A DNA stretch of 64,000 bases from assembly GCA_001789205.1 (NCBI GenBank), contig MFYT01000039.1:85295-149294 (forward strand), written 5' to 3'. Positions 9,202-58,675 of the stretch are shown here, in pieces. The stretch comes from Candidatus Raymondbacteria bacterium RIFOXYA2_FULL_49_16 (GTDB taxonomy: Bacteria > Fibrobacterota > OXYB2-FULL-49-7 > XYB2-FULL-49-35). The translations under genes were made by a program, and so were the position numbers. The notes under the pieces are model-generated. The model was not told the DNA's origin. It saw nothing but the letters and a program-made list of their open reading frames with translations, and made no database searches. Every line of letters begins with the position of its first letter. The first letter of the stretch is position 1.

Positions 9202-9216
9202 ATTTGCTCCCGCTAT

Positions 9217-9528: not shown

Positions 9529-9741
9529 TTCCCCGGTTCTCGTTCTATATTACAGGACATCCTCGAATGCTCGTACCAGTAATATACGTTATCTCATGAC
9601 ATCTAGCAAATATCACCCTGGCTAATTACTGGGAAAACCGATTGAACAAGACTGTAAGAGTCTGATATTTAGAAATTATTATCCGTCCCGGGGCTTTCCT
9701 GTGATGACCCAGGGAGATTTCTGTGTGCAGGAGGAAAATCC

Positions 9742-10719
9742 CTATTTTTTTCGCGCAACCTCGGACGGGAGCATGCCGAACCGGTGCCTGAAGAGTTTGG
9801 CGAAATACGATGAATGGTTGATGCCAACGCGATAGTGGACCTCGGTCACATTCATGTCCGTGGTCTTCAGTAATTCCATGGCCTTGTCGATCCGGAAATC
9901 ATTCAAATATTGGATGAAATTCGTTCCCGTGTCTTTCTTGAAAATCTTGCCCACGTAATCCTCGCTTAGGCCCGCGAAGCGCGCAAGGTCAGAGAGGGAA
10001 ATTTCCTCGGCATAATGGTCGCGGATGCAGGCCATGGCCTTGTTGGTCACAGCGCTGAACTGCTTTGGCACAACAGGGACTTGTTTTTTTCTTTTCCAGC
10101 GCAGCAAAATAGCAATGAACGCAATGACTGTGGCTGCCACAGGTATGGCCTTTGACCAGGGGATTTTGTGCTGTTTGGGCGCAGTTGTTAGAGGCGCCAG
10201 GGAGTCTCCTGGTACACTATCCGAAGTCTTGAGCGCGATCATGTCTATTTTAGCGCCAACCTCTTTGACTCTAAGAGAAAGCAGATGTTTTCCAAGTTTT
10301 TCAACAATGAAATATGGGGTATTTTTATGGCAGCCGTCGCCGCAGCTTACCTTGGTGGCCCATTGCCATGAGTCCTTTTTATAAAAATAGAGCCCATCTG
10401 TGTAATCTGGATTGTCCGGATTTTTGTTATCAAGCGTGACAAATACCCCGTTATCTCCTGGATTTGTTGCCCAAGTCCTTAAAAAAAGGTAATAGGTGTC
10501 AGCCACAGGCATATCGATGGTGTATTCAATTCTGCCCCTGCTTTCGTAGATGCCGGCAGAAACAATGTATTTTCCTGACGAGGCGTTTTTATACGCGCGT
10601 TCAATGGCCCACCCTGAATTATCGATTCGATTGTAGGTTTCAGCTTCAATGAACAGAGAATTTGTGTCCACGGCATGCAAGACACTGCAAGCAATGAAAA
10701 CGCAGGAAATTACCTTCAT
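9742..10719 (-). CDS. Membrane-anchored AraC-family regulator with N-terminal carbohydrate-binding-module-like sensor domain
   Basis: Signal peptide. 'FIEAETYNRIDNSGWAIE...SGKYIV' resembles CBM6/35-like galactose-binding folds. TM 'AATVIAFIAILLRW'. C-terminal AraC HTH 'MNVTEVHYRVGINHSSYFAKLFRHRFGMLPSEV'. Confidence 0.7.
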   Translation of the reverse strand: MKVISCVFIACSVLHAVDTNSLFIEAETYNRIDNSGWAIERAYKNASSGKYIVSAGIYESRGRIEYTIDMPVADTYYLFLRTWATNPGDNGVFVTLDNKNPDNPDYTDGLYFYKKDSWQWATKVSCGDGCHKNTPYFIVEKLGKHLLSLRVKEVGAKIDMIALKTSDSVPGDSLAPLTTAPKQHKIPWSKAIPVAATVIAFIAILLRWKRKKQVPVVPKQFSAVTNKAMACIRDHYAEEISLSDLARFAGLSEDYVGKIFKKDTGTNFIQYLNDFRIDKAMELLKTTDMNVTEVHYRVGINHSSYFAKLFRHRFGMLPSEVARKK

Positions 10720-10745
10720 CCTGGAATTTCCTCTATTAATTCATC
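10648..10745. repeat. 98-bp direct repeat copy 1 (5' end of the AraC gene plus its upstream region), about 95% identical to 25231-25328
   Basis: Aligned by eye: 'aatgaacagagaatttgtgtccacggcatgcaagacactgcaagcaatgaaaacgcaggaaattaccttcatcctggaatttcctctattaat' against the copy at 25231, with about 5 mismatches. Confidence 0.8.
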
Positions 10746-11993
10746 CTCAAAAATGCGTGAAAAAATGCCTTTTCCCTTCTTAAAAATAATATTTCTCCTC
10801 TGGAACCATGTATAAAGAAAAGAATAAAATCTTCTCCGTGAATACCGCCCTAAAAGTATATTATTCACGGGATGCCGAAATCGATTCAAAAAGTACGGTT
10901 TTCATTCGAGGAAACGGGCCTAACCCACTTTGGCGGGATGTGGCTTATTCAGAGTTTTTGCAAGTTGCTCGGTTTACGCCAGCGTCTTTACGATTATGTT
11001 CGACGTCCCCAAAGAAACCACTTTTACAGTTCCACCGAGTTCATTCTGGCGTTGCTTTATTCCATAATCATGGGACTTCGACGTATCAACAAGACTGATA
11101 TTCGATTTGGACTCTACGGTTATAGTCATTTACGGGGAGCAGCAGAAAGGGGCTGTTGGATACAATCCGAAGAAGCCCGGACGGAGGTCCTATCATCCGC
11201 TTCTATGTTTCGAGGCAAATTTTCAGGAATTCTGGCACGGCAGTCTTCGTCCTGGGAACACAGTGGCCATGACAGGAGCGATACCGTTCATTCGGCGGTG
11301 TCTGGAGAAAGTTTCTTCCACGATATCACGGAGCCGGATACGGTTTCGTATGGACTCTGGTTTTTATTCCAACCGCATCACCAACTATCTGGACGCGCTG
11401 GGATGCGGTTATGTCATTGTCGCCAAGGAATACGCGACCATCAAAGCGCCATGCGTACGCATGCCGGTTCAAAAAGCTCGGCAATGGGTGGGAGGCCGGA
11501 GAATTCTGGGAGAAAGTTCGGCATGTGGACAAGAAAGAGCGCCGTTTCGTTGTGGTGCGACGTCCCATTCCTTCCGACGAGGAGGAGAACCGGCAACTGA
11601 CCTTGTTTAAGCACCAGAAATATGTGTATCATGTTTTCGTGACCAATCTACCGATCAGTCCATGGCGAGTGTATCTGTTTTACAGTCCGCGAGCAACCAT
11701 CGAGAAAAACATACGGGAACTCATGTACGATTACCCCTTGGGCAAGATACCGACGAAAGATTGGACGGCAAATGTGGCGTTCTTCCAGTTGGTTTTGTTT
11801 GCGGCAAATATCGCTCACTGGTTCAAACGCCTGTGTTTGCCCGAGGATTATCACTACCAGAAGGAATTTCTTCAGGCATTCAAAACAATCGAAGGGTTAC
11901 GGTTACCAGGAAATTTTCGAATTTGCAAAAGACCCGAGAGGTCTCTCTCTATGAAAGACCCGAGAAAATAAGTGTTTTCACGCATTTTTGAGG
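10745..11993 (+). mobile_element. IS1380-family-like insertion sequence (about 1.25 kb) with 19-bp terminal inverted repeats and a frameshifted transposase
   Basis: Left inverted repeat CCTCAAAAATGCGTGAAAA (10745-10763) is the perfect reverse complement of the right one TTTTCACGCATTTTTGAGG (11975-11993). The interior encodes a DDE transposase in three frames. Confidence 0.7.
10872..11971 (+). pseudogene. DDE transposase (IS1380/IS4-like), disrupted by at least two frameshifts
   Basis: Three overlapping ORFs (10872-11600, 11107-11610, 11411-11971) together reconstruct one transposase. Contains 'GYNPKKPGRRSYHPLLCF', 'FRMDSGFYS', 'VVRRPIPSDEE...HVFVTNLPISPWRVYLFYSPRATIEKNIRELM'. Confidence 0.7.
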
Positions 11994-44731: not shown

Positions 44732-46243
44732 CTAAGATAGGCTTTTTTCCTTCTTCCGATAGTCAGAGGGGGTTGTTCCAACGGCCTTTTTAAATACCGT
44801 GGAGAAGTGTTCCAGGGAATTATACCCAGCTTCCATGGATATTTCCGTTATGGACTTTTCTGTACCGGAAAGAAGGCATTGGGCCAGCGTAATCCGTTCC
44901 GTGTTGAGGTATTGGGGAAAGGTCATGCCGGTTTTCTGGTTGAAGAGTATGGAGAACTTTCCCTTGTTAACCGCAATAATCCTGGCTGCATCCTCAATGC
45001 GCAAATCAGCGTTTCCGAGGTTTTCTTTAATGTGCAGCAATACCGCATCCAGGGGGTCTCCGATCGGGTGCATCTTGGGTGCGCTACGGACCTTCCGCAG
45101 TATTACTATAAACGCAAAAAGGACGATACCCGCGCAGATGAGGAGTACAAGCATGCATGGTCGGTTGTGGTTTCTGACGAAAACCAAGTTTCCCCATTCA
45201 GAGGGAAAATCGTTGGCCGCAATTGAAACGCCGCTCCAGGTGGTCCGTATGCATTTGCCGTCTTCGCGTTCCCAGTTTCCATTGAAAAAATCAAACCCAA
45301 TAGTATCATTGTTTCGGGGAATTGGCATGCGCAATTCGGTCCAGGGAATGAACAACTCAACGGTATATCCGGAATCCCGGTCTGAATAGTTGTTCACGGT
45401 CCCGAGTATTTGAACCGCTTTCCGGACACCTGTTCCCCAGATATACACCTGCCCGTTTTGGTAATCGAAAACATTCCCCTGGGTCGAATCCACAGATATG
45501 ATTATCTCGCAGTCACCGGTGTCGCGATATACGTTCCGGTCGTGGACCCGGTCAAAACACAGTTCAATGTTATCGTCGTACCACAGCGGAATAATCCGTG
45601 TCGCCGACCCTTCGAATTCTTCTGAAAGCGGCAGCCGCGGTGAGATTGCCGTGAGGTGGCGGTCGTGGACCATGCTTGCGAAGTAAAGCCCGGTTTCGTT
45701 CCAGAAAGACCAGAGCGATATCAGGTTGTCGGTTGAGAGCGTCAGTACCGGCGCCAGTTGCCGCCACTCATCGAGTACGCCGTCTATGCGAATATTTTTT
45801 TTCAGATACGGGACGTTTAGGGCAATGGTTTTATATTCCTGGTTCCGGTCAAAAAAGAGGGGGCGTGATGATTCGGGAAAAACCGTGTCTGTCCCAGACC
45901 CCTGCAAAAAAATGACCGCCATAAGCCACTTTTGTTTAAGGTATTGGTCGGGTATGCCGTGGCAGTCCCAGGCAAATTCGTAGGGTGGAACAGCAACCGG
46001 GCCGATCCGTAAAAAAGGGCTGCTCTGCGCGTTGAATGTATTGAAATTTTTTGTTTCGGCCATGCGATAATAAAAGACCACGGAATCGGCCTTCAGGGTA
46101 TCGATATCCACCTCAAGCCTGACCCGGTCGCCTGTAACCACGGAAAACGGTGCGGGTTTAATGAATCGGGGTGCGGCGCAGAGTGTAAGCGCAAAAAGAG
46201 GAATACCGAGGACCCGCAGATATGGCATACGGGTAAAATACAT
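44732..46243 (-). CDS. Membrane-anchored AraC-family regulator with CBM9-like extracytoplasmic sensor domain
   Basis: CBM9/DOMON-like 'IDGVLDEWRQLAPV'. TM 'MLVLLICAGIVLFAFIVIL'. C-terminal AraC HTH 'ITEISMEAGYNSLEHFSTVFKKAVGTTPSDYR'. Confidence 0.7.
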   Translation of the reverse strand: MYFTRMPYLRVLGIPLFALTLCAAPRFIKPAPFSVVTGDRVRLEVDIDTLKADSVVFYYRMAETKNFNTFNAQSSPFLRIGPVAVPPYEFAWDCHGIPDQYLKQKWLMAVIFLQGSGTDTVFPESSRPLFFDRNQEYKTIALNVPYLKKNIRIDGVLDEWRQLAPVLTLSTDNLISLWSFWNETGLYFASMVHDRHLTAISPRLPLSEEFEGSATRIIPLWYDDNIELCFDRVHDRNVYRDTGDCEIIISVDSTQGNVFDYQNGQVYIWGTGVRKAVQILGTVNNYSDRDSGYTVELFIPWTELRMPIPRNNDTIGFDFFNGNWEREDGKCIRTTWSGVSIAANDFPSEWGNLVFVRNHNRPCMLVLLICAGIVLFAFIVILRKVRSAPKMHPIGDPLDAVLLHIKENLGNADLRIEDAARIIAVNKGKFSILFNQKTGMTFPQYLNTERITLAQCLLSGTEKSITEISMEAGYNSLEHFSTVFKKAVGTTPSDYRKKEKSLS

Positions 46244-46385
46244 GTTTCAATGCATTGAAAAAAATGACAATAAGTATATGATTTTAACCAATCGTTGTAT
46301 GTATATGTTCTTACTGAACTGGCTTTTTTTCCCTTGTTATCGTGGTCCAGGAGGGTTATTTTTTTAAAGAAGAGGACGAATTTAC

Positions 46386-47585
46386 ATGCGGAATATGGAA
46401 AGCGTGGGCCTGTCTCGCCATCGTGTCCGCTACGAATCTTTCGGAGGAATACTTTCTTCAACCGACCCGCCTTTTCTTGCATGGGTTGATCGCACATTTC
46501 TCAGAGACGCCGGCTACGAAGAAAGTCCTTTATGGCATACAGATGACCCAGGGTATCTTTCGGCCCCCACTGAAGCGCATTTCTCAATAACAGAAAAGTG
46601 CAGCAGCGGATGTGCGGGGTGCTACATGGATTCTTGCGGAGAGACTGCCGTTGATCTTTCCCTTGAAGAGGTAAAGGCCGTTCTTGATACCTTGCGTGCC
46701 ATGGGCGTCTTTCATGTGGCGTTAGGGGGTGGGGAGGCTTTTGAACGGCCGGACTTTGAGGACATTGCCGCCTACTGCCGCGAAATCGGCCTGGTCCCAA
46801 ATCTTACCACCAATGGACAGCGAATGGGTGACCGCGAAATCGGCATATGCAGAATGATGGGTCAGGTAAATGTGTCCCTGGACGGGCTGGAAAGCCACTA
46901 TGGAGTAAACGGAAGAGCCGGGAGCTTTGAGCGGGCAGACCAGGCGTTGCGGAAACTCCGCGCCGCTGGCATTGCGGCAGGTATAAATTGTGTTGTATCT
47001 GTGAAAAATTATTCCCATATCAAAGATATAGCGGAATACGCCTGCACCCGCGGACTGGCGGAAATTGAATTCCTTAAATACAAGCCCTCGGGCAGAGGAA
47101 AAGACCGGTACCCGGATTTCGCGCTCAGCCAGGAGATGATCCGTTCTTTTTATCCGCGTATCCAGGAAATCGCCGCATCCCTGCCTGTGGAAATTAAAAT
47201 TGACTGTTCCTTTATTCCGGCAATGATGTACCATCACCCTCCTCTTGAAGAACTGGAGAAATGGGCGGTGGCTGGCTGTGACGGAGGAAACATGCTTTTG
47301 GGAATACGAAGCAGCGGTGTTTTTTCCGCCTGTTCTTTTATTTCAAACAATGACGCCGAAAGCGCTTTATCCCTTAAAACACACTGGCACACCTCAGCGC
47401 ACCTTTCACGATTCAGACGATGGACACAAAACCCTCCCGAACCCTGCGCGTCGTGCACCTATCTAACCATCTGCAGGGGTGGATGCCGGGCAGTGGCATT
47501 ATATTATAACCATGATTTCTCCTCGCCCGACCCTGAATGTCCGTTCGTATACGATTATATGTGCTGTAAAGGAGCCCTTAAATGA
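46386..47585 (+). CDS. Radical SAM / SPASM-domain protein (putative peptide-modifying maturase)
   Basis: Cx3Cx2C 'CSSGCAGC'. C-terminal Cys-rich SPASM-like region 'CASCTYLTICRGGCRAV'. Its stop overlaps the next start (ATGA). Confidence 0.75.
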   Translation: MRNMESVGLSRHRVRYESFGGILSSTDPPFLAWVDRTFLRDAGYEESPLWHTDDPGYLSAPTEAHFSITEKCSSGCAGCYMDSCGETAVDLSLEEVKAVLDTLRAMGVFHVALGGGEAFERPDFEDIAAYCREIGLVPNLTTNGQRMGDREIGICRMMGQVNVSLDGLESHYGVNGRAGSFERADQALRKLRAAGIAAGINCVVSVKNYSHIKDIAEYACTRGLAEIEFLKYKPSGRGKDRYPDFALSQEMIRSFYPRIQEIAASLPVEIKIDCSFIPAMMYHHPPLEELEKWAVAGCDGGNMLLGIRSSGVFSACSFISNNDAESALSLKTHWHTSAHLSRFRRWTQNPPEPCASCTYLTICRGGCRAVALYYNHDFSSPDPECPFVYDYMCCKGALK

Positions 47586-47755
47586 ATAAACCAGTCATTC
47601 TGCCTGAAGGCGTCTTAAAAATTAAAAGAGGATATAATCCCAACTCAAGCAGTATCGGCAGCGTTGTATACAGTTTTCCCTATGCCTTTATAGCTTTAAG
47701 CGCGGTTCTCGCCGTGATCGCGCTTTTAAAAAAGAAGAAAGATAAAACCCCATGA
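47582..47755 (+). CDS. 57-aa membrane peptide A (conserved 'LKIKRGYNPNSSSIG' core, C-terminal TM helix and Lys-rich tail)
   Basis: MNKPVILPEGVLKIKRGYNPNSSSIGSVVYSFPYAFIALSAVLAVIALLKKKKDKTP. ATGA overlaps on both sides. Paralog at 50983. The core is conserved at the protein level despite synonymous codon differences. Confidence 0.5.
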   Translation: MNKPVILPEGVLKIKRGYNPNSSSIGSVVYSFPYAFIALSAVLAVIALLKKKKDKTP

Positions 47756-49179
47756 GTCTTCCAAACGCCGCGGCAATTGCCGCGTGCCTTTTCTGCGGGG
47801 TATACGCTCAGCCTTTTTCAGCCCTCAGCCAGGGGACCGCGAAAGACGTGTTTTCTTTTCAAAAGGAACTGCGCACTGCTCTGGAAAACCCATACAAATA
47901 TTTTCATACCGGCGCTTTTATTGCTCTCATAGATCCGGTCATCAGCGATAGTACCGCCATTGTGAGCGATATTCCAGCCGATTCCATAAAGACGCTGCTG
48001 GAACAGGCCCGCGCCCGGCACTCCTATCCCCTTGTATTTGTCTTTAGTCTTCTGTATGCGTCGGCCAGCGCTGGTACGTCCTCTAAAACCGAATGCGCCT
48101 GTTTAAACGAAGCGGCAAGCCTCGCCTTCCGACGGCTCAGCAGGCCCCATGAAGCGCTTCGCATTTTCAAAGCAGCTTCTTTACGGGGATGCGAAGGGTC
48201 GTATGATTCAGCCGAAACGGTTGACCGCTATATCGAAAGCGATATGAGCATTGACGCCCTGTTAAAGGAAAAGTTCTACCGGAAGGACAGTGTGGAAAAA
48301 GAGCGGTATGTATCAGCCCTCATCGCCGATCTCACCGCCCATCCGCATTCCTCTCTCCGAATGGAAGCGATGAAACGGCTGGGCGATGTCTATTTTGATC
48401 TTAAAAATTATCCGAAAATGAAACGATGGTATTTGAAAGTCCTGCAGACCGACCCGTCCCTGCGCAAGACTACGCCAATCGGATACCGGCTTACTATCGG
48501 AGACAGCCATATCAAACGCACTACCATACTGTATTTATTTTACGCATCCTACCTGTTTCTGGGATTTTTTCTTTTACGGCGCATACGGAGCGGGGGTGGC
48601 ATTGATACAGCCTTTCTGTTCAAACGCTTCTCCCTATTCGCCCTAGCGCTACTACTGTTCGGCATAGTGCTGTTCTTGGCCGACCTGATACTTTTTAAGC
48701 GGACAATCGGCGAACTGCTCAAGCAGGAGTCGTTCGCCTTGCGCTTCACCGATCCGGTAGTCCCGCTGAGCTTTCTTGATGTTGTTCCGCGAATCCTCCT
48801 GATAAAAATATTCTGTATTGGCCTGGCACCGCTTCTGTTCGCCACGCTCTGCAGCGCCACGAACAAATCCCGCTCCCGGCTTACCGGAAGTGCGGCGCTG
48901 CTGGTTTTCACCGCTGTACTATGGGGGCATTTTACCGTCGCCAGTTTCTATAACGAATACCTGTATAATGACGGCATCATCCTCAAGAGCCGCTACCTCT
49001 ACTCAGGCGAAATTGAATCGCTGCTGATGAACGACCTGGATAAAGTGATTAAAGCAAACCCGGATTTTTTCTTTAAAAGCAAAAATTCCGATCTTCGGGT
49101 TTTTATACGCAAGAACTTTTCAGAAGAGATGCGCAGCAAAACGCCCATGGGAGACTATTATCGTGAACAGAGACGCTGA
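47752..49179 (+). CDS. Membrane protein: periplasmic TPR-like N-terminal domain plus a C-terminal polytopic TM region
   Basis: Signal peptide 'AAIAACLFCGVYA'. About 250-aa helical/TPR-like domain. Four to five C-terminal TM helices. Confidence 0.5.
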   Translation: MSLPNAAAIAACLFCGVYAQPFSALSQGTAKDVFSFQKELRTALENPYKYFHTGAFIALIDPVISDSTAIVSDIPADSIKTLLEQARARHSYPLVFVFSLLYASASAGTSSKTECACLNEAASLAFRRLSRPHEALRIFKAASLRGCEGSYDSAETVDRYIESDMSIDALLKEKFYRKDSVEKERYVSALIADLTAHPHSSLRMEAMKRLGDVYFDLKNYPKMKRWYLKVLQTDPSLRKTTPIGYRLTIGDSHIKRTTILYLFYASYLFLGFFLLRRIRSGGGIDTAFLFKRFSLFALALLLFGIVLFLADLILFKRTIGELLKQESFALRFTDPVVPLSFLDVVPRILLIKIFCIGLAPLLFATLCSATNKSRSRLTGSAALLVFTAVLWGHFTVASFYNEYLYNDGIILKSRYLYSGEIESLLMNDLDKVIKANPDFFFKSKNSDLRVFIRKNFSEEMRSKTPMGDYYREQRR

Positions 49180-49180
49180 T

Positions 49181-50986
49181 ATGCGATTCCTGCCGCTTTT
49201 GGCCTGTTTTCTTCTGCTTGTCTGCGGACCGCAAAGGCACGGGGGTACGCTGCCTGAACTCACCGTCATCGACCGCTTTTCCGCCAGCATAGAATGGAGC
49301 ACGGCAAACGCGATCCGGGGTATGCTGTTGTATGCCGCGGAAGGCGAGACCGAACGGACCATAACCGAAGAAACCCGGACAACGTTTCATCACATAACCA
49401 TATCAGGCCTGCTTCCCGATAAAGTGCATACCTACCGGATCAACAGTGGTCCTGATCATACATACCGTTTCCGCACTGCTCCGGGAGCCACATCGTCTTT
49501 CAGGTTCGCGCTTATTGAGACATATGAGAAAACCCTGCAACAGGCATATCCCGATTTTGTCATTATTACTAGCGCCGATTCACACGTCTGCCGTGAAATC
49601 ATAAAAAAATATGCGGACCTCCATACCGGAACCGCCTTTTATTATGGAACGTTTGCCTTTACCTGGGGAAACAGCACATTTTCTTCAGATACAATAATCG
49701 ACTCAAAAAGTGAAAATCGTTTTTTGCTGGCTGCCACACAGTTGCCCGAATCCGCTGACAGCAATACGGCCTTGATTGTCCTTGATAAAAAAGCCCCATT
49801 GGGGATTGATACAACAGACCAGGCAATAACGGTGCATACCGCCGGGACAGCGTTGCTGTTTGAAGTGCAGGGTCCTGAAATTATCGCATCATTGATTAAC
49901 ACTGCATCCAACAACCCTGCCGAACTTACTGTGCGCCGGGGAAGCCTCGATTATAAGAAAAGCTGCGTCTATTGCCGCCGTCTTCTTGAAGACCGGAAAT
50001 ACCATGAAAGCATCAGGTGGTATCGGCGGTTCATGGAGAACGATACCGCTACTTCGCGTATCGACGATGCGTTATACCAGGTAGCCTATATATACGATCA
50101 TTATCTCTTTGATTATCCCAATGCGGTTTCTTCCTATCAGGAACTGGTGGACCGGTTTCCAGAAAGCAGCAAGGTCCGTACCGCCAGGTTCAGGATATCT
50201 TATATCAGCACTCATGCTGACCACGGATTTGAACCGCTTAAAGTGTTTGAGCGCGCCCGGCTTTCCCGTTTTCAGATAAATAGTGAGGAGTCTGCCCGTG
50301 AAGTAGAGGAACTTTTATCGAAATATCCGGGGACCTCCCTTGAAAAGGACATTCTTTTCTGGCTTGGTAATGTCTATGCTCCGGCGCATTCTGAGAAAGC
50401 GCTTTCCTGCTTTCTCCGCCTGGCCAAAGACAGCAATGCGGAGACCGCGTGGCGCGGAGGAATGGCCGCAGCAGACCTGTATTATCGCGACAGCAGATAT
50501 ACAGAAGCGCGACAGCAGTATATATTGCTCAGGTCTTACGCCGGCCAGGACCGGGCGGCCCTGGAAATAAAAATCAGCAGGTGCATACGAAATGCCCGTA
50601 GAGAAGTTGTCAGAATAGTTTTCCTGATATTCACCCTTGCCGTCATGCTCGCGTCACTTTGTATAAAGCCCCGTCCCGCGGCTGCCGCTCTATGTACGCG
50701 GTTCCTCGCTTTTCTTGCGGTTTACGCTGTGGCAGCAGCGCTGCCCTTTTTGATCTGGAAAGACTTTCTCATGCAAGCAAAGAACTTTACCCTCGCGGCA
50801 ATACCCGTACTGGCGTTTTCCTCAACGCTGATCAAAGAACGGTTTCCGCTTTTTTTTGCTGGAATAGACAACACGGTTTTACGCCTTTGCGTATCTCTTG
50901 CCGCGGCGTGTATGTTTACGCTGGGTATAATATACCTTTTGTTGTATTATTTTCATTATCTCTTTATTGTTGAAGGCATAGTATGA
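49181..50986 (+). CDS. Membrane protein: PAP-type N-terminal Fn3-like domain, degenerate phosphoesterase-like domain, TPR repeats and C-terminal TM helices
   Basis: Signal peptide. 'SIEWSTANAIRGMLLY...HHITISGLLPDKVHTYRI' resembles the N-terminal domain of purple acid phosphatases. Metal-binding motifs are not evident. TPR-like 'ALYQVAYIYDHY'. Polytopic C-terminus. Confidence 0.5.
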   Translation: MRFLPLLACFLLLVCGPQRHGGTLPELTVIDRFSASIEWSTANAIRGMLLYAAEGETERTITEETRTTFHHITISGLLPDKVHTYRINSGPDHTYRFRTAPGATSSFRFALIETYEKTLQQAYPDFVIITSADSHVCREIIKKYADLHTGTAFYYGTFAFTWGNSTFSSDTIIDSKSENRFLLAATQLPESADSNTALIVLDKKAPLGIDTTDQAITVHTAGTALLFEVQGPEIIASLINTASNNPAELTVRRGSLDYKKSCVYCRRLLEDRKYHESIRWYRRFMENDTATSRIDDALYQVAYIYDHYLFDYPNAVSSYQELVDRFPESSKVRTARFRISYISTHADHGFEPLKVFERARLSRFQINSEESAREVEELLSKYPGTSLEKDILFWLGNVYAPAHSEKALSCFLRLAKDSNAETAWRGGMAAADLYYRDSRYTEARQQYILLRSYAGQDRAALEIKISRCIRNARREVVRIVFLIFTLAVMLASLCIKPRPAAAALCTRFLAFLAVYAVAAALPFLIWKDFLMQAKNFTLAAIPVLAFSSTLIKERFPLFFAGIDNTVLRLCVSLAAACMFTLGIIYLLLYYFHYLFIVEGIV

Positions 50987-51156
50987 ATCATTCCAAAGGC
51001 CGCATTCTTAAAATTAAAACCGGGTATAACCCGAATTCCAGTTCAATAGGAACGCATGTTTCTTATTTTATAAAAGGCATGTCCGCGTTCGCGGTACTCA
51101 TTAACGGCATCATGGCCGTTCTGTACACGTTCCGCGAGAAAAGGAAAAAGAAATAG
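50983..51156 (+). CDS. 57-aa membrane peptide B (paralog of peptide A)
   Basis: MNHSKGRILKIKTGYNPNSSSIGTHVSYFIKGMSAFAVLINGIMAVLYTFREKRKKK. The start overlaps the upstream stop (ATGA). Confidence 0.5.
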   Translation: MNHSKGRILKIKTGYNPNSSSIGTHVSYFIKGMSAFAVLINGIMAVLYTFREKRKKK

Positions 51157-51161
51157 CCGCT

Positions 51162-51668
51162 ATGAGCTTTTTTAAGATCATGAGTGTCTTTGCTATCTGC
51201 GCCGGCTGCATAGGCTGCGCCGGCCGCCGGGAACAAACAGTGGCCCCTGATTTTCTTCTGAATGATCTGCAGGACCGGAGATTTTATCTGAGCAGCTGCA
51301 AAGGAAAGGCCGTGCTTCTGAATTTCTGGTCTACTCATTGCGCACCCTGCATGGAAGAAATGCCCCATTTGGAAAAACTCTATGGGGAATTCTCGAAACA
51401 GGGAGTGGTGTTTGCGGGAATATGCATTGATCCGGCGGAAGCAGGATATCTGGAAACGCTGGTACATGGTCTTGGCGTCACGTATCCTGTGCTTGCCGAT
51501 ATTTCAGGCCGGACAGCGGCGCTGTATGCGGTAACAGCCGTACCCGTAACCATTATCATCTCTCCGGAGGGTATGATACACAGCAGAACAACAGGATATA
51601 GGGAAGCGTATATACAGCGTTTCAGAGAACAGCTTGCCTCTCTGACAGGCGCATCCGGGACACCATGA
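51162..51668 (+). CDS. TlpA/ResA-like thiol-disulfide oxidoreductase (AhpC/TSA-redoxin fold)
   Basis: Lipoprotein-like signal 'FAICAGC'. 'LLNFWSTHCAPCMEEMP' contains a CxxC. Confidence 0.65.
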   Translation: MSFFKIMSVFAICAGCIGCAGRREQTVAPDFLLNDLQDRRFYLSSCKGKAVLLNFWSTHCAPCMEEMPHLEKLYGEFSKQGVVFAGICIDPAEAGYLETLVHGLGVTYPVLADISGRTAALYAVTAVPVTIIISPEGMIHSRTTGYREAYIQRFREQLASLTGASGTP

Positions 51669-53233
51669 AGCGTTTCATTGTAACCAGTGCCCTTGCATGC
51701 GTCCTTGTCGCCGGACCCAAAGCCGCATCTGAATTTCTTATCAGGCCTTTTGTCCAATCCATAACCAAGGAGTCCGCCGCTATCTGCTTCTCTCTGCCGA
51801 ACGATGCTGTTTCGCGCACGGTAATCGGCACGGCCGACAACGCTGAAACAGCCGTTTATACGGCGCATGAATCCTTAGTAAAAGCGCGTTTCACCGGTCT
51901 TAACCCGGAAACGAAATATTATTATACTGTTTCAGTCAATGGTACAGAACTTCTATCGCCGCCAGGAGAGTACTATTTTTTTACCGGATCCGCGGCATTG
52001 GAAACGCCGGTGACCATCGCGGTATATGGTGATACGCGCAGCGGCGAGGAAAGTTTTGATCTTGACCATCGGTCGGTCGTGGAAAGCATACGTCATTATT
52101 CGTCTCCCGATCTTCTCCTGCATACCGGAGATGTGGTCAATACGCAGGATCCCGAAGGGTGGAACCGGTTTTTTCACATCGAACATGAGCTTTTAAAAAA
52201 CACGCCGCTATATCCGGTACGGGGCAACAGTGACGGCGACCGGACTGATATCCTGCATATGTTCGCGCTTCCCGGAGATACCACCTGGTATTCCTTCTCC
52301 GCGGGACCGGTATACTGCATCGCCCTTGATCTGCAGAATAATATGACCGACAGCTATTATGCAAAACATATCGGCCCCGCAAGCGATCAGTGGAACTGGC
52401 TGACTCGCATGCTGGCCTCTGATGAACGGAAACGCTGCCCGTTTACACTGGTCTATTTTCACGCCCCGCTTTTCCCTCCGGATGACGAAACCAGCCCGGC
52501 AATGAAAGACCATCTTGTTTCACTGTTTGAAAAAAGCAATGTGGACCTTGTAATCAACGGCCAGCACTATTTTTCGTATGCCCAGCGGAATGGCGTAACC
52601 TATATGATAAGCGGCGGCGGGGGCGCCCTCCTTGACCGGTATCAGGCCAAACGATCAGCGTCGGTACGGGTGTATGAACCTGTTTTTCACCATCTGCGGA
52701 TCACGGCAAACTATCCCGCGCTCACCATAGAAGCGGTAGACAATGCGGGAACCGTCTTCTTCTCGCATTCCATTATCGCCTCTTCGCCTTCCCCGGGAAA
52801 AGAACAACCCCAGCCGGGCCTCACCGAAAACAGGATACCACTGCATATTTTCGGCAGTAGTGGCTGCGCCGAATGTGATTTACTTAAAAACGTGCTGCTT
52901 CCTGAAATTGAAAAGTCGCTCGCGCCCTATACCTTCTCCATTACTTTCTATGACACTGATATTCCCGAACACTATGAGCGGTTTCTCGTGTACGAGTCCC
53001 GTCTGGGCGACCGTAAGCACACCCTTCCTGCACTGTTATATGCCGACAGAATCCTGAGCGGCCCTGAACTTGACCTGCTTTCCCTGAAAGAGTTTTTTAA
53101 AAGCCGCGTCATGAGACAGGATAAAAACAGCGTCAAATCCCTTGGTTCCGAGAGGTATCCGATGTATCTTTATTTTATATTGGTTGCCGCAGGCATAGGG
53201 TTGTTCGTGTTTATTAAGAAAAGGAACGGATAA
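51665..53233 (+). CDS. Membrane-anchored purple-acid-phosphatase-like metallophosphoesterase with a thioredoxin-fold C-terminal domain
   Basis: Signal peptide. PAP N-terminal domain 'KYYYTV'. Metallophosphoesterase motifs 'AVYGDTRSG','HTGDVVN','RGNSDG','YFHAPLF'. 'GSSGCAECDLL' contains a CxxC. C-terminal TM 'MYLYFILVAAGIGLFVFI' followed by a KKRNG tail. Confidence 0.65.
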   Translation: MKRFIVTSALACVLVAGPKAASEFLIRPFVQSITKESAAICFSLPNDAVSRTVIGTADNAETAVYTAHESLVKARFTGLNPETKYYYTVSVNGTELLSPPGEYYFFTGSAALETPVTIAVYGDTRSGEESFDLDHRSVVESIRHYSSPDLLLHTGDVVNTQDPEGWNRFFHIEHELLKNTPLYPVRGNSDGDRTDILHMFALPGDTTWYSFSAGPVYCIALDLQNNMTDSYYAKHIGPASDQWNWLTRMLASDERKRCPFTLVYFHAPLFPPDDETSPAMKDHLVSLFEKSNVDLVINGQHYFSYAQRNGVTYMISGGGGALLDRYQAKRSASVRVYEPVFHHLRITANYPALTIEAVDNAGTVFFSHSIIASSPSPGKEQPQPGLTENRIPLHIFGSSGCAECDLLKNVLLPEIEKSLAPYTFSITFYDTDIPEHYERFLVYESRLGDRKHTLPALLYADRILSGPELDLLSLKEFFKSRVMRQDKNSVKSLGSERYPMYLYFILVAAGIGLFVFIKKRNG

Positions 53234-54123
53234 TGAAATCACGAAACGTTTCATCAATAGCGGAAACACGGACTGTTTTTGTTGATCTGAAATGGATAAA
53301 GGGAATATTGTTTGGAATTCTTTTTATGTTTATTGTCCCGCTGGCGCTATCATGCTCAAAAGAAACTTCCGGTACATTCAATCCCGCAGACCATTATTTA
53401 AAAATAGAAGAACTCAGGGCCGCTAAACCGCTGGACTTGCACAAAATTGAAAGCATATACACCACACAACTTGCACCGCGATATCACACGGCCTATCCCG
53501 CTATTCACGCATCCATCCTTGAAGCTATGAGGAAAGGGGAGGCCGGAGAAAACGTGCGTGTGCAATCGCAGACCATAAGCAAGGAGCTGCAGAAGATTTT
53601 CTACCGGGAGCTTGCCGCCTCGCTCAGCGCGCTTGAAGCGGAAGCAGACCCTGCGATGTATGCGCAGGAACTTGAAAGGGCGAAATCCGCGTATGCGTGT
53701 TTAAAACCGCTGTCTAAGCGCAGGAGCGAATGGCTGAAGAACGGCACAGCGTTTGACGACCTTTTCGCGTCAGCCTTCAGCACTTTGGCCTCAATGCCTG
53801 GCAAAGAAACCGTAAAAAAAACATGTGATCGGATCATTTTATTATTTCGCGACATTTTCATTTACTCTGTTTTTTATGAACTGTTCGGCATAGAGACGTC
53901 ACGGGGAACAGATAACATCACATGCGAAGAGAAAATGGCTGAAGCAAGGATCTTTCTGGAATCAGCTCTGCCATTCTGCAGGCAACAGCAGTTCTGCGTG
54001 CCGCTGGCAACAGCGTTTCATAAGGACTATAGGGACCTGGATATTGAAAAAACCAGGGAAGACTTGTTTGCCGCGTTCCCAGGGCTGGATACGCACGCAG
54101 TGTTGAAAGCGTCCGGGAAATAA
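53233..54123 (+). CDS. Hypothetical membrane/lipoprotein (last gene of the coupled operon)
   Basis: TM region with lipobox-like 'LALSCSKE'. The start overlaps the upstream stop (TAATG). Confidence 0.4.
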   Translation: MKSRNVSSIAETRTVFVDLKWIKGILFGILFMFIVPLALSCSKETSGTFNPADHYLKIEELRAAKPLDLHKIESIYTTQLAPRYHTAYPAIHASILEAMRKGEAGENVRVQSQTISKELQKIFYRELAASLSALEAEADPAMYAQELERAKSAYACLKPLSKRRSEWLKNGTAFDDLFASAFSTLASMPGKETVKKTCDRIILLFRDIFIYSVFYELFGIETSRGTDNITCEEKMAEARIFLESALPFCRQQQFCVPLATAFHKDYRDLDIEKTREDLFAAFPGLDTHAVLKASGK

Positions 54124-54162
54124 ACCGCCTGGTTCGAAAAAACCCCCGGTTTTCTCCACACA

Positions 54163-56211
54163 TTATCTTAGCAGCACCGCGCGCTTGGTATACACAATTC
54201 CATTGACGCATATGCGGATTATGTACGTTCCGGATGGCATGTTTCGGGCGTTCCAGGTGTATGCGTGCGTACAAGCGGTATTCACAGTACGTTTATTGTA
54301 CAGGAACGAGGTCCCCGCATTGTGTACGCATACGCCTTGCACATTATAAATGCGCAAGGTTGGGCTGGTTGCGGCGGGTAATCCATTTGTTGGATCAGGT
54401 GATAAACCCGCCCCAATAAATATGGATATCACCATAACTGGATTAAACGGGTTTGGTTCCACTGTTACAGCCATATCATTCTGCGTTGAGGCCGATATGC
54501 CCGCTCCGGTTGTTCCTCCGCACGAGCTTTTGTCTTCGGGCGTATTATAATCGGCAGAATAAAACCACACTTCCTGTGGAGCAACAAGCGTATCATTACC
54601 TGAATAGAGTTCAAGATCAAAGGACAGGTCAGAGCTTGTAGAGCTCACCTGATGGACCTCTGCCGCAATGACATTCCCGCCATTCCGGAAATGCGATATA
54701 AAAGAGGTGATGTCGTTGACCGCGAATGCCGATCCCTCGTGATCTCCGGAAGCAAAAGTGCTGTACGTCACTTCACCCGGAAGCATGGATCTGCGGGCGA
54801 TCTCGTATCCATTCAAATAGACCACAACACCATCATCATATTTTACTCCTAGCGAACAGGACGAAAAGGCGGACGCATCATCAATAAAAAAACTTTTCCT
54901 GAAATAGGCCGCATCCACATGAGGTATCACGGTGTTTTCGTCCCCATCGCCATAGCCGATTTCAGCCGTCCCCGTTGACCAGCTTCCATCGTCATATCCC
55001 TGGTCTTTCCATGTAACGGTATAACAGAGTGTGTCAATGGTAAAAGTAATAACACGGCTTGTATCCATCACATTGCCTGAATCATCGACCGCGCGCACAT
55101 AGAAGGTATATGCCATGTCATTTTCCAGAGAAAGAGTTGTTGTATGGATTTTTGCGCCCTCTCCGGTGACAAACTGATTGGCCATTTCATAATAAGATTG
55201 GTCGGACATGCTCCAGCGAACAAAGGCGTTTTCCTGCGTCTCAACCAGCACTATCACTTCCGTGGTGTTTACGGTACCCGATGGTTTGCTATCTGTAACA
55301 TACGGCGCCAATGAATCGGGGCCTAGTATCCAGTAATCGGTCATGGCCCAGGAATCATTATTAAAAGGGCAGGCCACCGTCATAAATCTCAGATTTGCCC
55401 CATCAACCTCGACATATACAATAGTATTATTATTATCACCACCCGTAATGCCCAAGGCGCCCGCGTCAATCTGGTATATGCCTCCGGGTTCATCCGGATA
55501 GCACAGACCGTCAAACGCACAGGCGGAATGGGGGTCAAGCACCCTCATTCTGCAGAAGGAATGGGTATGTCCGACCATAATACCCTTGACTTTTGTACCG
55601 TGTGAAAGCAGCATGTTCCACAGATCGTCCGCCCAGGCAGCTGGTGGTCCGGCATATCTTCCGCGGGGAAACGCCGGACCATGAAATGAAATGAATACAT
55701 GATCTGCGAAATCCGCATCCGTGATCAGGCTGTCCATCCAGTTGATCCAGGTTGCCTGACCAAGCCCGGAATACTGGTCAAAAACAATGATTCTCACGTT
55801 TTTCCAGTCCACGTAATAATTACACCTGTTGTCTCGCAGGACAACACTGTCAAGAGACGGGAGTATTGTATCGAGCATAAGGTCAACATCAGCAGGGGTC
55901 TCGTCATCATGATTACCCATGACCGGATAATAGGGGGGCGCCTGGTATTGCGGATCCTGTACGATGCCCCAGTTTTCATTTGCCAGGTCCAGATCACCGG
56001 CAGCGACAATGAATTCCGCTTTGGGAAATGGAACGGTCTCGTTAATGGTCATATCCCTGATTTCGGTGAGCATATACCGTACGCCAGTATGCCATCCGCA
56101 ATTGTCGGCCACAAGTGCAAAGGTCCACTTTTGGCAGAATGCCGACACTGTCAGAAGATATATACAAAGTGTTATAAGGATGTGCTTCATACTATATTGA
56201 TTCAGCCTCAT
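54163..56211 (-). CDS. T9SS-sorted secreted purple-acid-phosphatase-like metallophosphoesterase (paralog of the ORF at 4364)
   Basis: 'AAGDLDLANENW','MGNHDDE','GHTHSF'. Shared domain 'YTFYVRAVDDSGNVMDTSRVITFTIDT...GYGDGDENTVI'. C-terminal sorting domain 'VEPNPFNPVMVISI'. Confidence 0.7.
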   Translation of the reverse strand: MRLNQYSMKHILITLCIYLLTVSAFCQKWTFALVADNCGWHTGVRYMLTEIRDMTINETVPFPKAEFIVAAGDLDLANENWGIVQDPQYQAPPYYPVMGNHDDETPADVDLMLDTILPSLDSVVLRDNRCNYYVDWKNVRIIVFDQYSGLGQATWINWMDSLITDADFADHVFISFHGPAFPRGRYAGPPAAWADDLWNMLLSHGTKVKGIMVGHTHSFCRMRVLDPHSACAFDGLCYPDEPGGIYQIDAGALGITGGDNNNTIVYVEVDGANLRFMTVACPFNNDSWAMTDYWILGPDSLAPYVTDSKPSGTVNTTEVIVLVETQENAFVRWSMSDQSYYEMANQFVTGEGAKIHTTTLSLENDMAYTFYVRAVDDSGNVMDTSRVITFTIDTLCYTVTWKDQGYDDGSWSTGTAEIGYGDGDENTVIPHVDAAYFRKSFFIDDASAFSSCSLGVKYDDGVVVYLNGYEIARRSMLPGEVTYSTFASGDHEGSAFAVNDITSFISHFRNGGNVIAAEVHQVSSTSSDLSFDLELYSGNDTLVAPQEVWFYSADYNTPEDKSSCGGTTGAGISASTQNDMAVTVEPNPFNPVMVISIFIGAGLSPDPTNGLPAATSPTLRIYNVQGVCVHNAGTSFLYNKRTVNTACTHAYTWNARNMPSGTYIIRICVNGIVYTKRAVLLR

Positions 56212-56299: not shown

Positions 56300-58675
56300 T
56301 TAGTTTAGCAATATCAATTTTTTTGACATCATTACCTTGCCATTACAATGAACTTTTAATACATATATGCCTGCCGGCATATCAGATGCGTCCCATACGG
56401 CTGTTAACGAGCTTTTTATTGCCGCAGTTACTGAAGCAATCGAAGCAACCCTCCTCCCTTTTACATCAAACACGTCAAATCGCGGGGTGGCATTCTTGCC
56501 GTTAGGATTTTGCATTATAAAGCCCATGTTTTTAATCGATATTGTTGTTGATGGATTGAAGGGGTTTGGAGAAACGTCAACCCCTATGTCCGATAAAAAC
56601 CCGTTAGAAGTATATGCCTCAGTAACAAGATCCGGGGGCATGCAACCCTCGTCATGATAGGACCATTCGCTCTCAAGACCAAACAGATCGCTGTTGTTTA
56701 TTGCCAATCTGGCGGCAAAGGTAAAAAAAGTATTATTGGCCGGTTTTTTATGCACTTCTATTGCCAGGGTATTTGTTCCGTTTATTAAAAGATCTGAATA
56801 TTCTGAAATATCCGCATTTAAAAACAACCATCCTGCCGTATCAGCGGCCCAGGTGTCGTATGTCACCGGCCCTTCGGACATTTCAGCCCTCAGCACTTCG
56901 CGGCCGTTAAGATATGCCACCGAACCATAATGCAAATTCTGGTACAGCTGCAACCTGGTCACCTCGGAAACATCAGGTATGTTAAAAAGTTTCACGAAAT
57001 ATGCCGCATTTATCCCTGATGCAAGAGGCGTATTGCTGCTGTAATTACCGAAACGGGCCAGCCCGGCGCTCCAGCCGGGTCCGGTGGTAGTATAACCTGG
57101 ATTTTTCCATTGCGGTCCGCTAATGGAAGTGTCATAGACAAAGGTAATGATCTCAGGGGCTGATTCATTGCCCGAATCATCTTTCGCGCGTAGATACACT
57201 GTTTTGGTGGTTGAATATTGACAATCAACATTTGCCGTATGAACAACACCGCCGGTAATGGTAAACATATTTTCCATCTCTGCATACGATCGGTCTTCGA
57301 GGTCCCACTTTACTGTGGCATTTTCATTCGTTGCTGCCATAAGCTCCGCAGGACAGGCATGTATTACTCCTCGAGGCCCGGCCGAGACAAAGCGCGGGTC
57401 ATAATAGTCGTTTGTGTCCGCCAGAAACGTAATGACCGCGGACGTGTCCATTATATTTGGCGTTGGTTCATCATCAGCCGCCCGGATATAAAGAGTCTTT
57501 GTTTCCCCCTGCAGACAGGTAATGACCGTGCTGTGTAAAACGTCTCCGGTAATAGAAAATGTATTGGCCATACTGCCGTATTCCTGGTTGGTATAGCTCC
57601 ATTTTACCGTAGAGTTCTCATTCGTATTTACTGTAATGACCGCATCAAGAGATCGTACGGTATCAATCATGGACAGGCCCGGAGAAAAAACGGTAAAATA
57701 AGGCGCCTCCCTGTCCGGTGCGTCATTTACCGTCCAGAGATTCGCTATCTGCCAATCAGGATCATCGGCCTCCCAATTCCACAGACCTTTTTTCACCATA
57801 AAAGTAACGCTGTCATCATCAACCTGGATCCAGACAATTCCCATTCGCGGATCGTTCATTGCTATGCCGACATGTCCTGGATCTATCTGCCATATGCCGT
57901 CATCTTCATGCGCCCTGATATCAGTCCTCTCCGCGGTCTCATAACATCCGGTATCAGTTGCGCAGGGTCCGTCAGGATCTTTTATACGAAGAATATCGTA
58001 CCAGTGGGTGTGGCCCACAAGAACACCTTTAACTTTATTGCCGTGAGAGATAAGCATGTTCCAGAAATCTGGGACCCAGCTCCCTCTGCCTTCGATTGAT
58101 GTATGGCGCTGCCGTGCAAATGCGGGACAATGAAAAGCGATAAAAACATGTTTATTATTACCGGCTCCCGCAATCATGCTGCTGACTGAGTCTATCCAGC
58201 CGGTTTCTCCCCAGAAAGCGGTATACTGATCAAGGACAATCAGGCGAACGTTTTTCCAGTCTACATAATAGTTAAGGCCATCGCTAAAAACCGTCGTGCT
58301 GTCCTGCTTAACAAGAATGGAATCAACCATATATTCAACACAGGTCACGCCGCTCACTGCCGAACACCCTGATTCAACATCATGGTTCCCGTTAACAGGG
58401 AAATAGGCAACGCCATTGCTGTTGGCCCTCACCACATCATATAGAAGGCTATCTCCCACGGAGCTTGCTAGGCTAAGGTCGCCCCCAGCCACAATAAACT
58501 CAGCTTTCGGAAACGCAGGAGATGTATTTACCGTAGCATTAGTCAGTTCTTTGCAGGCCCATCGTACTGGTTTTTCACTGGTCAGATTATCGGCATAATA
58601 ACCGAAGCTCCATTTTTCACCAAACGCAACGGTGCTCAATAGAAGAATAATTGTAATCAGCAGGTAATTTGTCAT
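56300..58675 (-). CDS. T9SS-sorted secreted metallophosphoesterase with duplicated beta-sandwich domains (paralog of the ORFs at 4364 and 54163)
   Basis: 'VAGGDLSLAS','NGNHDVE','VGHTHWY'. Two 'TITGxVxHST' repeat domains. C-terminal sorting domain 'VSPNPFNPSTTISIKN...KVMMSKKLILLN'. Confidence 0.7.
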   Translation of the reverse strand: MTNYLLITIILLLSTVAFGEKWSFGYYADNLTSEKPVRWACKELTNATVNTSPAFPKAEFIVAGGDLSLASSVGDSLLYDVVRANSNGVAYFPVNGNHDVESGCSAVSGVTCVEYMVDSILVKQDSTTVFSDGLNYYVDWKNVRLIVLDQYTAFWGETGWIDSVSSMIAGAGNNKHVFIAFHCPAFARQRHTSIEGRGSWVPDFWNMLISHGNKVKGVLVGHTHWYDILRIKDPDGPCATDTGCYETAERTDIRAHEDDGIWQIDPGHVGIAMNDPRMGIVWIQVDDDSVTFMVKKGLWNWEADDPDWQIANLWTVNDAPDREAPYFTVFSPGLSMIDTVRSLDAVITVNTNENSTVKWSYTNQEYGSMANTFSITGDVLHSTVITCLQGETKTLYIRAADDEPTPNIMDTSAVITFLADTNDYYDPRFVSAGPRGVIHACPAELMAATNENATVKWDLEDRSYAEMENMFTITGGVVHTANVDCQYSTTKTVYLRAKDDSGNESAPEIITFVYDTSISGPQWKNPGYTTTGPGWSAGLARFGNYSSNTPLASGINAAYFVKLFNIPDVSEVTRLQLYQNLHYGSVAYLNGREVLRAEMSEGPVTYDTWAADTAGWLFLNADISEYSDLLINGTNTLAIEVHKKPANNTFFTFAARLAINNSDLFGLESEWSYHDEGCMPPDLVTEAYTSNGFLSDIGVDVSPNPFNPSTTISIKNMGFIMQNPNGKNATPRFDVFDVKGRRVASIASVTAAIKSSLTAVWDASDMPAGIYVLKVHCNGKVMMSKKLILLN

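Follow-up and report, generated by a model that had tools for sequence, protein, structure and literature searches.

A family of small membrane-helix peptides reciprocally linked to a radical SAM/SPASM enzyme suggests a peptide-maturation system present in many bacterial phyla

What is the role of two paralogous genes of 57 codons each in an operon that also encodes a radical S-adenosylmethionine (SAM)/SPASM enzyme, predicted membrane proteins with tetratricopeptide repeats (TPR), a thioredoxin and a phosphoesterase? This question is raised by a stretch of 64,000 nucleotides from Candidatus Raymondbacteria bacterium RIFOXYA2_FULL_49_16 of the Rifle aquifer (contig MFYT01000039.1), called the window throughout this text, in which the two genes, here named pepA and pepB, lie at 47582..47755 and 50983..51156 on the forward strand, as do all other genes of the operon. 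Gene callers routinely overlook genes encoding fewer than 60 amino acids, and in the family to which these two belong most copies are unannotated or labelled “hypothetical”. Our analysis revealed that this peptide family is reciprocally linked to one dedicated subfamily of radical SAM/SPASM enzymes, and the linkage suggests a peptide-maturation system that has not been described before.

The preliminary description of the locus had reported two paralogous open reading frames (ORFs) of exactly 57 amino acids plus stop codon, and our translations agree with it. The pepA product reads MNKPVILPEG-VLKIKRGYNPNSSSIG-SVVYSFPYAFIALSAVLAVIALL-KKKKDKTP and the pepB product MNHSKGR-ILKIKTGYNPNSSSIG-THVSYFIKGMSAFAVLINGIMAVLYTF-REKRKKK. 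Their common core, [VI]LKIKxGYNPNSSSIG, occupies residues 11-26 of peptide A (VLKIKRGYNPNSSSIG, 47612..47659) and residues 8-23 of peptide B (ILKIKTGYNPNSSSIG, 51004..51051). Fourteen of its 16 residues are identical, as reported earlier; the number of identical residues with different codons is 10 of 14, the previous figure of 10 of 13 being a small miscount, and the nucleotide identity of the core is 31/48. The similarity of the two peptides is far above chance (BLASTP E = 3e-11), and no other ORF of the window matches a profile of the family, which gives these two E = 1e-23 and 2e-25, so that pepA and pepB are genuine genes. In peptide A the core is followed by a hydrophobic helix (residues 27-49, 47660..47728), assigned from the AlphaFold2 model and from hydrophobicity, and then by the KKKKDKTP tail. 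An AlphaFold2 model of the peptide alone, computed from a 34-sequence alignment, consists of one long helix (residues 25-54, predicted local distance difference test score (pLDDT) 96) preceded by an unstructured, motif-bearing N-tail (pLDDT 57-66). The gene overlaps given in the preliminary description are also real: the start of pepA overlaps the stop of the radical SAM gene as ATGA, and pepB overlaps the stop of the upstream TPR membrane protein gene (p607) in the same way. Such overlaps point to coupled translation of the genes. Moreover, the pepA stop overlaps the start of the following gene, p475, in a second ATGA, and an AGGAG lies 7 nucleotides 5′ of the pepA start.

A profile of both peptides matched 457 proteins in an indexed search of 5.8 billion proteins, and an index-free search with a hidden Markov model (HMM) returned 497 clusters at 50% identity, 71 of which have E <= 1e-10. 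Nearly all of the matches listed are 50-130 amino acids long; among the top 150 index-free matches listed, the long exceptions are a fusion to a PqqD domain (P0222) and a protein of 331 amino acids (P0153) that is apparently an ORF-extension artefact. Where family members carry a name at their source it is “hypothetical protein”, no Pfam or NCBIfam (June 2026) model significantly matches either peptide or any of 34 family members, and full-text literature searches for the motif and for keyword combinations returned nothing relevant. In family members, a short basic N-tail leads into the motif G[KR][IV]L[KR][IV]KxG[YF]NPNSSS[IVML]G, after which come a single hydrophobic helix and a charged tail that varies; the peptides have no conserved Cys. 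Of the top 143 index-free matches, 135 keep the segment G[YF]NPNSSS[IVML]G unaltered; rare variants have T, C, H or V at the aromatic position or read NANSSS, NSNSGS or NPNSSG. Comparison of 107 distinct copies of the gene, from loci L004-L080 and from the window, shows scrambled third codon positions in the motif over fixed amino acids. Because the fetch pattern pre-selected KxGYNPNSS in these loci, independent support for the invariance comes from the index-free 135/143. Together, the fixed residues over scrambled third positions and this retention of the motif exclude chance ORFs, and an RNA element was likewise rejected, since an Rfam scan of 46000-54400 gave no match and it is the amino acids that are conserved. 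In the same gene copies, the first Ser of N-S-S-S is encoded by TCN in 107/107 and the second by AGY in 102/107, with mixed codons for the third; as these two codon families are not interconvertible by a single synonymous change, the pattern appears to have been frozen since the origin of the family.

Our taxonomic scan, which used one genome per species, found 149 relatives, from which 77 loci were kept, and placed the family in at least 14 phylum-level groups. The loci belong to Fibrobacterota, Chitinivibrionales, Desulfobacterota (including the isolate Desulfobacter curvatus DSM 3379), Geobacterales, Planctomycetota (including Phycisphaerae and Brocadiaceae), Aminicenantes, other Acidobacteriota, Bacteroidota, Kiritimatiellota, Spirochaetota, Elusimicrobiota, Hydrogenedentota, Nitrospirota, Myxococcota, Bradymonadia, Delongbacteria, FCPU426 and others. 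Wherever the contig is long enough, a locus as a rule contains two peptide paralogs, and this is so across phyla. One is the type on the radical SAM side of the locus, to which pepA belongs with the type-1 signature S[IV]V[FY]..P; the other is the type on the thioredoxin side, and pepB stands in this type-2 position, before the thioredoxin gene. The duplication that gave rise to A and B is therefore ancient, which explains conservation at the protein level together with saturated synonymous sites. Judged from the codons, the paralogs are under strong purifying selection at the protein level, and the earlier proposal of such selection instead of a recent DNA duplication holds, given the scrambled synonymous codons and the presence of two paralogs per locus across phyla.

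The linkage to the radical SAM gene was seen from both sides. Among the 77 loci selected by the peptide, a radical SAM homolog lies within ~1.5 kb of it in ~62 (tblastn E ~1e-40 to 1e-165, with the weaker values coming from contig-truncated copies), and most of the loci lacking one stop at a contig edge. Conversely, 80 metagenome loci were chosen by similarity to the radical SAM enzyme alone (44-64% identity), and in 65 of them a family peptide is encoded on the same strand no more than 2.2 kb away, either directly adjacent or ~1.4 kb upstream. Of the 15 loci without a peptide, 13 have less than 1.2 kb of upstream sequence, so that 65 of the 67 loci with adequate flanks carry the peptide. That family members elsewhere adjoin radical SAM/SPASM or TPR protein genes, which the preliminary description had named as a check, is borne out in both directions. 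In three loci (L083, L054 and L056) the conserved unit is minimal and consists of the radical SAM gene and the peptide alone.

The radical SAM/SPASM enzyme itself (46386..47585, 399 amino acids; Pfam Radical_SAM E = 1.2e-16) belongs to a family of more than 1000 members. Its CX3CX2C cysteines, C72, C76 and C79, are invariant in alignments of 12 and of 58 sequences, as are eight further cysteines (C274, C298, C316, C354, C357, C363, C367 and C385); the SPASM signature CX2CX5CX3C is present among the invariant cysteines, and the SPASM domain is full. The best NCBIfam matches are MftC (133 bits, cut-off 265), GeoRSP (132, cut-off 400) and PqqE (78, cut-off 381); the enzyme stays below all three equivalog cut-offs and is a member of none of these families. 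The second tier of NCBIfam matches includes NirJ2 and AhbD, SPASM enzymes that do not act on peptides. By sequence, the nearest solved structures are SkfB, PqqE and SuiB. An AlphaFold2 model of the enzyme (pLDDT 93.4, predicted template modelling score 0.91) was compared with the PDB by Foldseek and matched SuiB first (E = 2e-20, template modelling score 0.73, near full length), followed by SkfB, PqqE, CteB and anSME. All of the model's top 16 PDB matches are chains of these five proteins, and all are peptide- or protein-modifying enzymes. A highly conserved N-terminal extension, RYExFGGI..PP.L..VDR, is specific to the family and in the model forms three beta-strands (residues 12-35) followed by short helices.

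Each peptide adjoins one of two proteins which are paralogs of each other and combine TPR-like repeats with a membrane domain. The partner of peptide A, p475 (47752..49179), carries a predicted signal peptide, together with a helical part that shows homology to TPR-repeat families and, at the C-terminus, a membrane domain with several passes; it has no Pfam match, its HMM match has E = 7e-8, and a homolog search returned p475 itself alone. The partner of peptide B, p607 (49163..50986, with an alternative ATG start at 49181), has a signal peptide, a purple-acid-phosphatase N-domain, a degenerate phosphoesterase-like part, a CxxC, TPR (a TPR_6 match) and C-terminal transmembrane helices, and its homolog in locus L025 likewise carries Pur_ac_phosph_N and TPR. 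In other phyla the gene after the type-1 peptide encodes a protein of ~427 amino acids (p427), and profile comparison with hhalign connects this family to p475 (98.4%), to a Nitrospirota family of 375 amino acids (98.7%) and to the C-terminal half of the p607/p680 family (99.2%); p475 and the p607 family match each other at 96.6%. The N-terminal half of p607 matches the phosphoesterase family (99.4%), but the GD metal-binding motifs are absent, so that this half is probably a pseudo-enzyme. We also considered the TPR-membrane domain as an intramembrane protease or sortase and rejected this idea, since no polar residues that could form a catalytic set are conserved in the p427 family; in the p607 family, a few E/S/H residues are conserved.

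Downstream of pepB the operon continues with a TlpA/ResA-like periplasmic thioredoxin (51162..51668) with a CAPC active site and a probable lipoprotein signal (AhpC-TSA E = 1e-23, ResA subfamily E = 4e-29), and with a purple-acid-phosphatase-like metallophosphoesterase (51665..53233; Metallophos E = 6e-12) that has PDB matches to purple acid phosphatases and one transmembrane helix. The motifs of the phosphoesterase family are unusual, with GD.R, GD.V, G..D, H.P and H.Y.R replacing DxH, GDxxD, GNHE and GHxH. The copy in the window carries a C-terminal thioredoxin/glutaredoxin-like CAEC segment near amino acids 425-430; in other phyla, a phosphoesterase of ~770 amino acids ends in a glutaredoxin-like segment plus a CcdA/DsbD-like membrane domain with the cysteine motifs NPCA and CTGQVY.P (L025:7578-9968). 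Furthermore, TCxxCR is conserved in the p607 family, the copy in the window being SCVYCRR at about amino acids 266-272. The CAPC thioredoxin, the TCxxCR of the p607 family, the CAEC segment and the CcdA-like domain thus suggest a periplasmic thiol-redox relay as part of the system. The last gene of the operon encodes p296 (53233..54123), a conserved protein with one N-terminal hydrophobic segment that occurs in 23 system loci (HMM E = 1e-70) and has no Pfam or NCBIfam match.

Defining the system by all-against-all clustering of the ORFs in the loci and subsequent profile-profile comparison gave the conserved families radical SAM, peptide, TPR-membrane, thioredoxin, phosphoesterase, p296, DUF2950-like and HupE/UreJ. 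In most phyla the order is p680, p296 (in some), peptide type 2, TlpA-like thioredoxin, ~770-amino-acid phosphoesterase, peptide type 1, p427, radical SAM and a DUF2950-like protein of ~213 amino acids, where p680 combines a purple-acid-phosphatase N-domain, a degenerate phosphoesterase, CxxC, TPR and transmembrane helices, and p427 combines TPR and transmembrane helices. The window and a Chitinivibrionales locus (L081) have the same gene set with two modules reordered and without the CcdA-like domain, and Desulfobacter curvatus has the same core components with a different set of accessory genes. Nitrospirota, Acidobacteriota and Geobacterales, with the isolate Geomesophilobacter sediminis among the carriers, show a second architecture, in which a single peptide gene is placed between the TPR-membrane and radical SAM genes; nearby are a purple-acid-phosphatase-like enzyme, a HupE/UreJ-domain membrane protein and sometimes a small cytochrome c7-like protein. 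In the one-peptide loci of G. sediminis (L082/L164) and in L061, L069 and L071, the HupE/UreJ_2 (Ni/Co-transporter-like) membrane domain is part of a protein of 430-490 amino acids, whose position beside this variant hints at a connection to metals; L082 also has the small cytochrome c7-like protein.

The surroundings of the operon contain further related genes. Additional phosphoesterase-like genes lie on the reverse strand of the window at 4367-6622, 54163-56211 and 56300-58675. A protein of 752 amino acids encoded ~40 kb from the operon matches the system phosphoesterase profile with E = 8e-36; 54163-56211 and 56300-58675 give weaker matches and lie directly downstream of the operon on the opposite strand, and 56300-58675 also has a weak match to a type IX secretion tail domain (Por_Secre_tail). 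Divergent from the operon is a gene for an AraC-type regulator with a CBM9 domain (44732-46243, reverse strand). The 142-bp intergenic region that it shares with the radical SAM gene contains a promoter-like site upstream of the latter (46255-46282, 10/12), the sole strong match; the counts of promoters and terminators are not above shuffled expectation.

How do the enzyme and the peptides act together? With a confidence only slightly better than even, we propose that the enzyme modifies the NPNSSS segment and that the peptides stay in the membrane as anchored small subunits of an envelope complex, the modification being putative. In this proposal, the cytoplasmic enzyme would bind the ILKIK/ILRVK segment, which is basic and strand-like, and might do so through its own three-stranded sheet at the N-terminus; it would then abstract a hydrogen atom within the invariant N-P-N-S-S-S, where the outcome could be a cross-link, an epimerisation or an anSME-like oxidation of Ser. 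The aromatic position of the motif makes an unlikely target, since it can be occupied by F, T, V, C or H with the partner enzyme intact. As the peptides are too short for co-translational targeting, modification would take place before or at membrane insertion. The mature peptide would then be a small subunit of its cognate TPR-membrane protein, in an envelope complex together with the phosphoesterase and the thiol-redox relay. That the product remains anchored rather than being released is probable, given that no peptidase or exporter is conserved, that the helix is conserved within each peptide type and that two paralogs are kept, each with its own membrane partner. The natural PqqD-peptide fusion P0222 (185 amino acids, JGI sample 3300042731; Pfam PqqD E = 2.6e-14), the sole fusion to another recognisable domain among the top 150 index-free matches listed, would imply recognition by a peptide-binding chaperone and a cytoplasmic N-terminus.

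Several observations weigh against this proposal. The fusion is a single case on a 1.2-kb contig (1176 bp), and a stand-alone PqqD gene was not found in the fetched loci by tblastn and phmmer with the PqqD part of P0222. The N-terminal extension of the enzyme (residues 1-65) has no match to PqqD or to the recognition element (RRE) of ribosomally made, post-translationally modified peptides (RiPPs) in Pfam. Moreover, K/R residues are more numerous in the 15 positions following the helix (3.3) than in the 15 preceding it (1.3), a bias that under the positive-inside rule would leave the motif outside the cell. Taken over its full length, however, the N-tail has the higher positive charge (+3.9 vs +0.9), so that the charges give contradictory indications; N-tails are ~45 residues long in some lineages. 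The K/R bias is the same in both peptide types, and a dual-topology pair with paralogs in opposite orientation was rejected on this ground. The linkage also has exceptions: radical SAM orthologs in L098 and L131 have no nearby peptide, and peptide/TPR-membrane pairs without a nearby radical SAM gene occur in L044, L049, L068 and L074. The orthologs in L098 and L131 have ~46-47% identity and at least 3.7 kb of flank on both sides; L131 keeps the TPR-membrane and DUF2950-like genes, and the region where the peptide is expected is AT-rich and non-coding. In L049 (Fibrobacteria nGRbin1, JADFYW010000018.1, ~5091-11415), a third family peptide and its TPR-membrane partner adjoin two divergently oriented phosphoesterase genes (737 and 738 amino acids). 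The complete system is present in L008 of the same metagenome-assembled genome, so that several peptides may share one enzyme acting in trans.

The pairs that lack a radical SAM gene favour an explanation that we consider less likely, namely that the peptides are unmodified subunits or tethers. They would dock the radical SAM enzyme on the membrane complex through the ILRVK strand and the GYNPNSSS turn, or stabilise the TPR-membrane proteins, and the true substrate of the enzyme would be found elsewhere, for instance in the phosphoesterase-like proteins, a lipid or a cofactor. The helix conserved within each type, the pairing of each peptide with a paralogous TPR-membrane protein, the lack of a conserved protease or exporter and the presence of NirJ2 and AhbD among the second-tier matches are all consistent with such a role. 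However, the minimal loci of radical SAM gene and peptide offer no other conserved candidate substrate nearby, the nearest solved structures all act on peptides or proteins, and the PqqD-peptide fusion has the form expected if a radical SAM enzyme were given the peptide as its substrate. Near-invariance of ten residues across phyla is also seen more typically where an active site reads the sequence than in a docking strand. The peptides might instead be precursors of a released product, in which the modified motif is cut from the helix, serving as follower or carrier, to yield a diffusible peptide or a redox cofactor like pyrroloquinoline quinone (PQQ) or mycofactocin. This we regard as improbable: MftC, the GeoRSP enzyme and PqqE are the best family matches, an invariant rather than hypervariable core is the pattern of cofactor precursors and one PqqD fusion is known, but the enzyme scores far under the MftC and PqqE cut-offs (133 vs 265; 78 vs 381). 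Among the conserved gene families of the system loci there is no peptidase, no ABC or other transporter and no further tailoring enzyme equivalent to PqqB/C or MftD/E/F, and the helix that is conserved within each type and the retention of two paralogs with a membrane partner each also speak against release.

The preliminary description had offered another reading, in which the motif, the helix and the basic tail together serve as a sorting signal such as PEP-CTERM or GlyGly-CTERM for a sortase-like enzyme; signals of the LPXTG kind belong here as well. The tripartite architecture is genuine, with motif, hydrophobic helix and a K/R cluster right after the helix in the order of such signals, and isolated weak matches to CTERM/LPXTG models (E 0.003-0.8) were seen in 1-3 of the 34 members. 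Sorting signals, however, stand at the end of large secreted proteins and depend on an enzyme of the sortase type. The peptides have neither cargo nor signal peptide, so that the whole protein would be the “signal”, and the model matches are scattered and non-significant. Larger proteins ending in the motif are absent from the top 150 index-free matches listed, save the P0222 fusion and the P0153 artefact, and exosortase, rhombosortase and sortase families are missing both from the conserved neighbours and from the surrounding 10 kb in the window. Since this reading also leaves the linkage to a cytoplasmic radical SAM enzyme unexplained, we consider it highly improbable.

If NPNSSS is indeed modified in the membrane-anchored peptides, the product could be of a new kind. 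We tentatively propose, as a possibility open to considerable doubt, that the modified segment is a built-in cofactor or a catalytic or structural residue, that is, a membrane-anchored prosthetic group never released from its helix, which would serve a purple-acid-phosphatase-like TPR-membrane complex. By inference, such a complex would be conserved in anaerobic bacteria of mostly diderm lineages in more than 12 phyla. The peptides, if modified, would represent a new class of radical SAM substrate, probably with new chemistry at an Asn/Ser-rich site, and the first such product to remain membrane-anchored. The carriers are environmentally important anaerobes, among them sulfate reducers, Geobacterales, anammox-related Planctomycetota, Fibrobacterota, Nitrospirota and Aminicenantes; two of them, Desulfobacter curvatus DSM 3379 and Geomesophilobacter sediminis, are in culture. 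The ten-residue motif is conserved to the degree of an enzyme active site, and the family provides a handle on an uncharacterised envelope system of 7-9 genes with phosphoesterase, TPR and thiol-relay parts. The general kind of arrangement, a short peptide beside a radical SAM/SPASM maturase, is already known. What appears to be new, from the sequences compared here, is the family itself, with its membrane helix and an invariant Asn/Ser-rich site without Cys or an essential aromatic residue, as well as the constant pairing of two paralogs, whose TPR-membrane partners are paralogs in turn, and the association with purple-acid-phosphatase-like and thiol-relay proteins.

Parts of the system resemble those of cytochrome c maturation System I/II (CcmG/ResA, CcdA and CcmI), with which it shares a TlpA/ResA-like thioredoxin, in other phyla a CcdA/DsbD-like domain, and membrane-anchored periplasmic TPR proteins. 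In contrast to these pathways, there is no heme-handling protein and no CXXCH substrate, and matches to ResB and CcmH are weak and below cut-off; the likeness is one of parts and not of membership. The closest solved folds to the enzyme are SuiB (streptide), CteB (sactipeptide), SkfB (sporulation-killing factor) and anSME, with Foldseek E-values from 2e-20 to 1e-13. All four enzymes abstract hydrogen from a peptide or protein substrate. Their sequence identity to our enzyme is only 14-20%, however, and they have either a full RRE domain of ~100 amino acids or none, whereas the enzyme described here has a three-strand extension of 55 amino acids. Their substrates (Lys-Trp, Cys-Xaa and the C/S-x-P-x-R motif) are not present here either; in particular, the anSME substrate motif (C/S)-x-(P/A)-x-R was not found in the peptides, there is no sulfatase in the cluster, and anSME is a mid-ranked fold match.

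In having a short peptide with an invariant site beside a radical SAM/SPASM enzyme, the system is similar to PqqA/PqqD/PqqE and MftA/MftB/MftC, and the enzyme's best matches in sequence and structure include MftC and PqqE. The peptides differ from the PQQ and mycofactocin precursors in lacking E-x3-Y or a C-terminal GVY (the 34 members match no family model) and in that their motif is N-proximal and precedes a membrane helix. As a rule there is no PqqD partner, and equivalents of PqqB/C/F and MftD/E/F are not in the conserved set. A further parallel is QhpC, the small gamma subunit of quinohemoprotein amine dehydrogenase, which is matured by the radical SAM/SPASM enzyme QhpD. QhpC is rich in Cys, contains thioether cross-links and has a dedicated transporter/peptidase for its export, whereas the peptides described here have no conserved Cys, carry a membrane helix, occur as two paralogs and have no exporter or peptidase in their gene set. 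The likeness would lie in a dedicated cytoplasmic SPASM enzyme and in a small protein that is not released and becomes a subunit of an envelope complex. By this analogy, we infer that the logic of the pepA/pepB system is closer to the maturation of the small QhpC subunit by QhpD than to the biosynthesis of antibiotic RiPPs.

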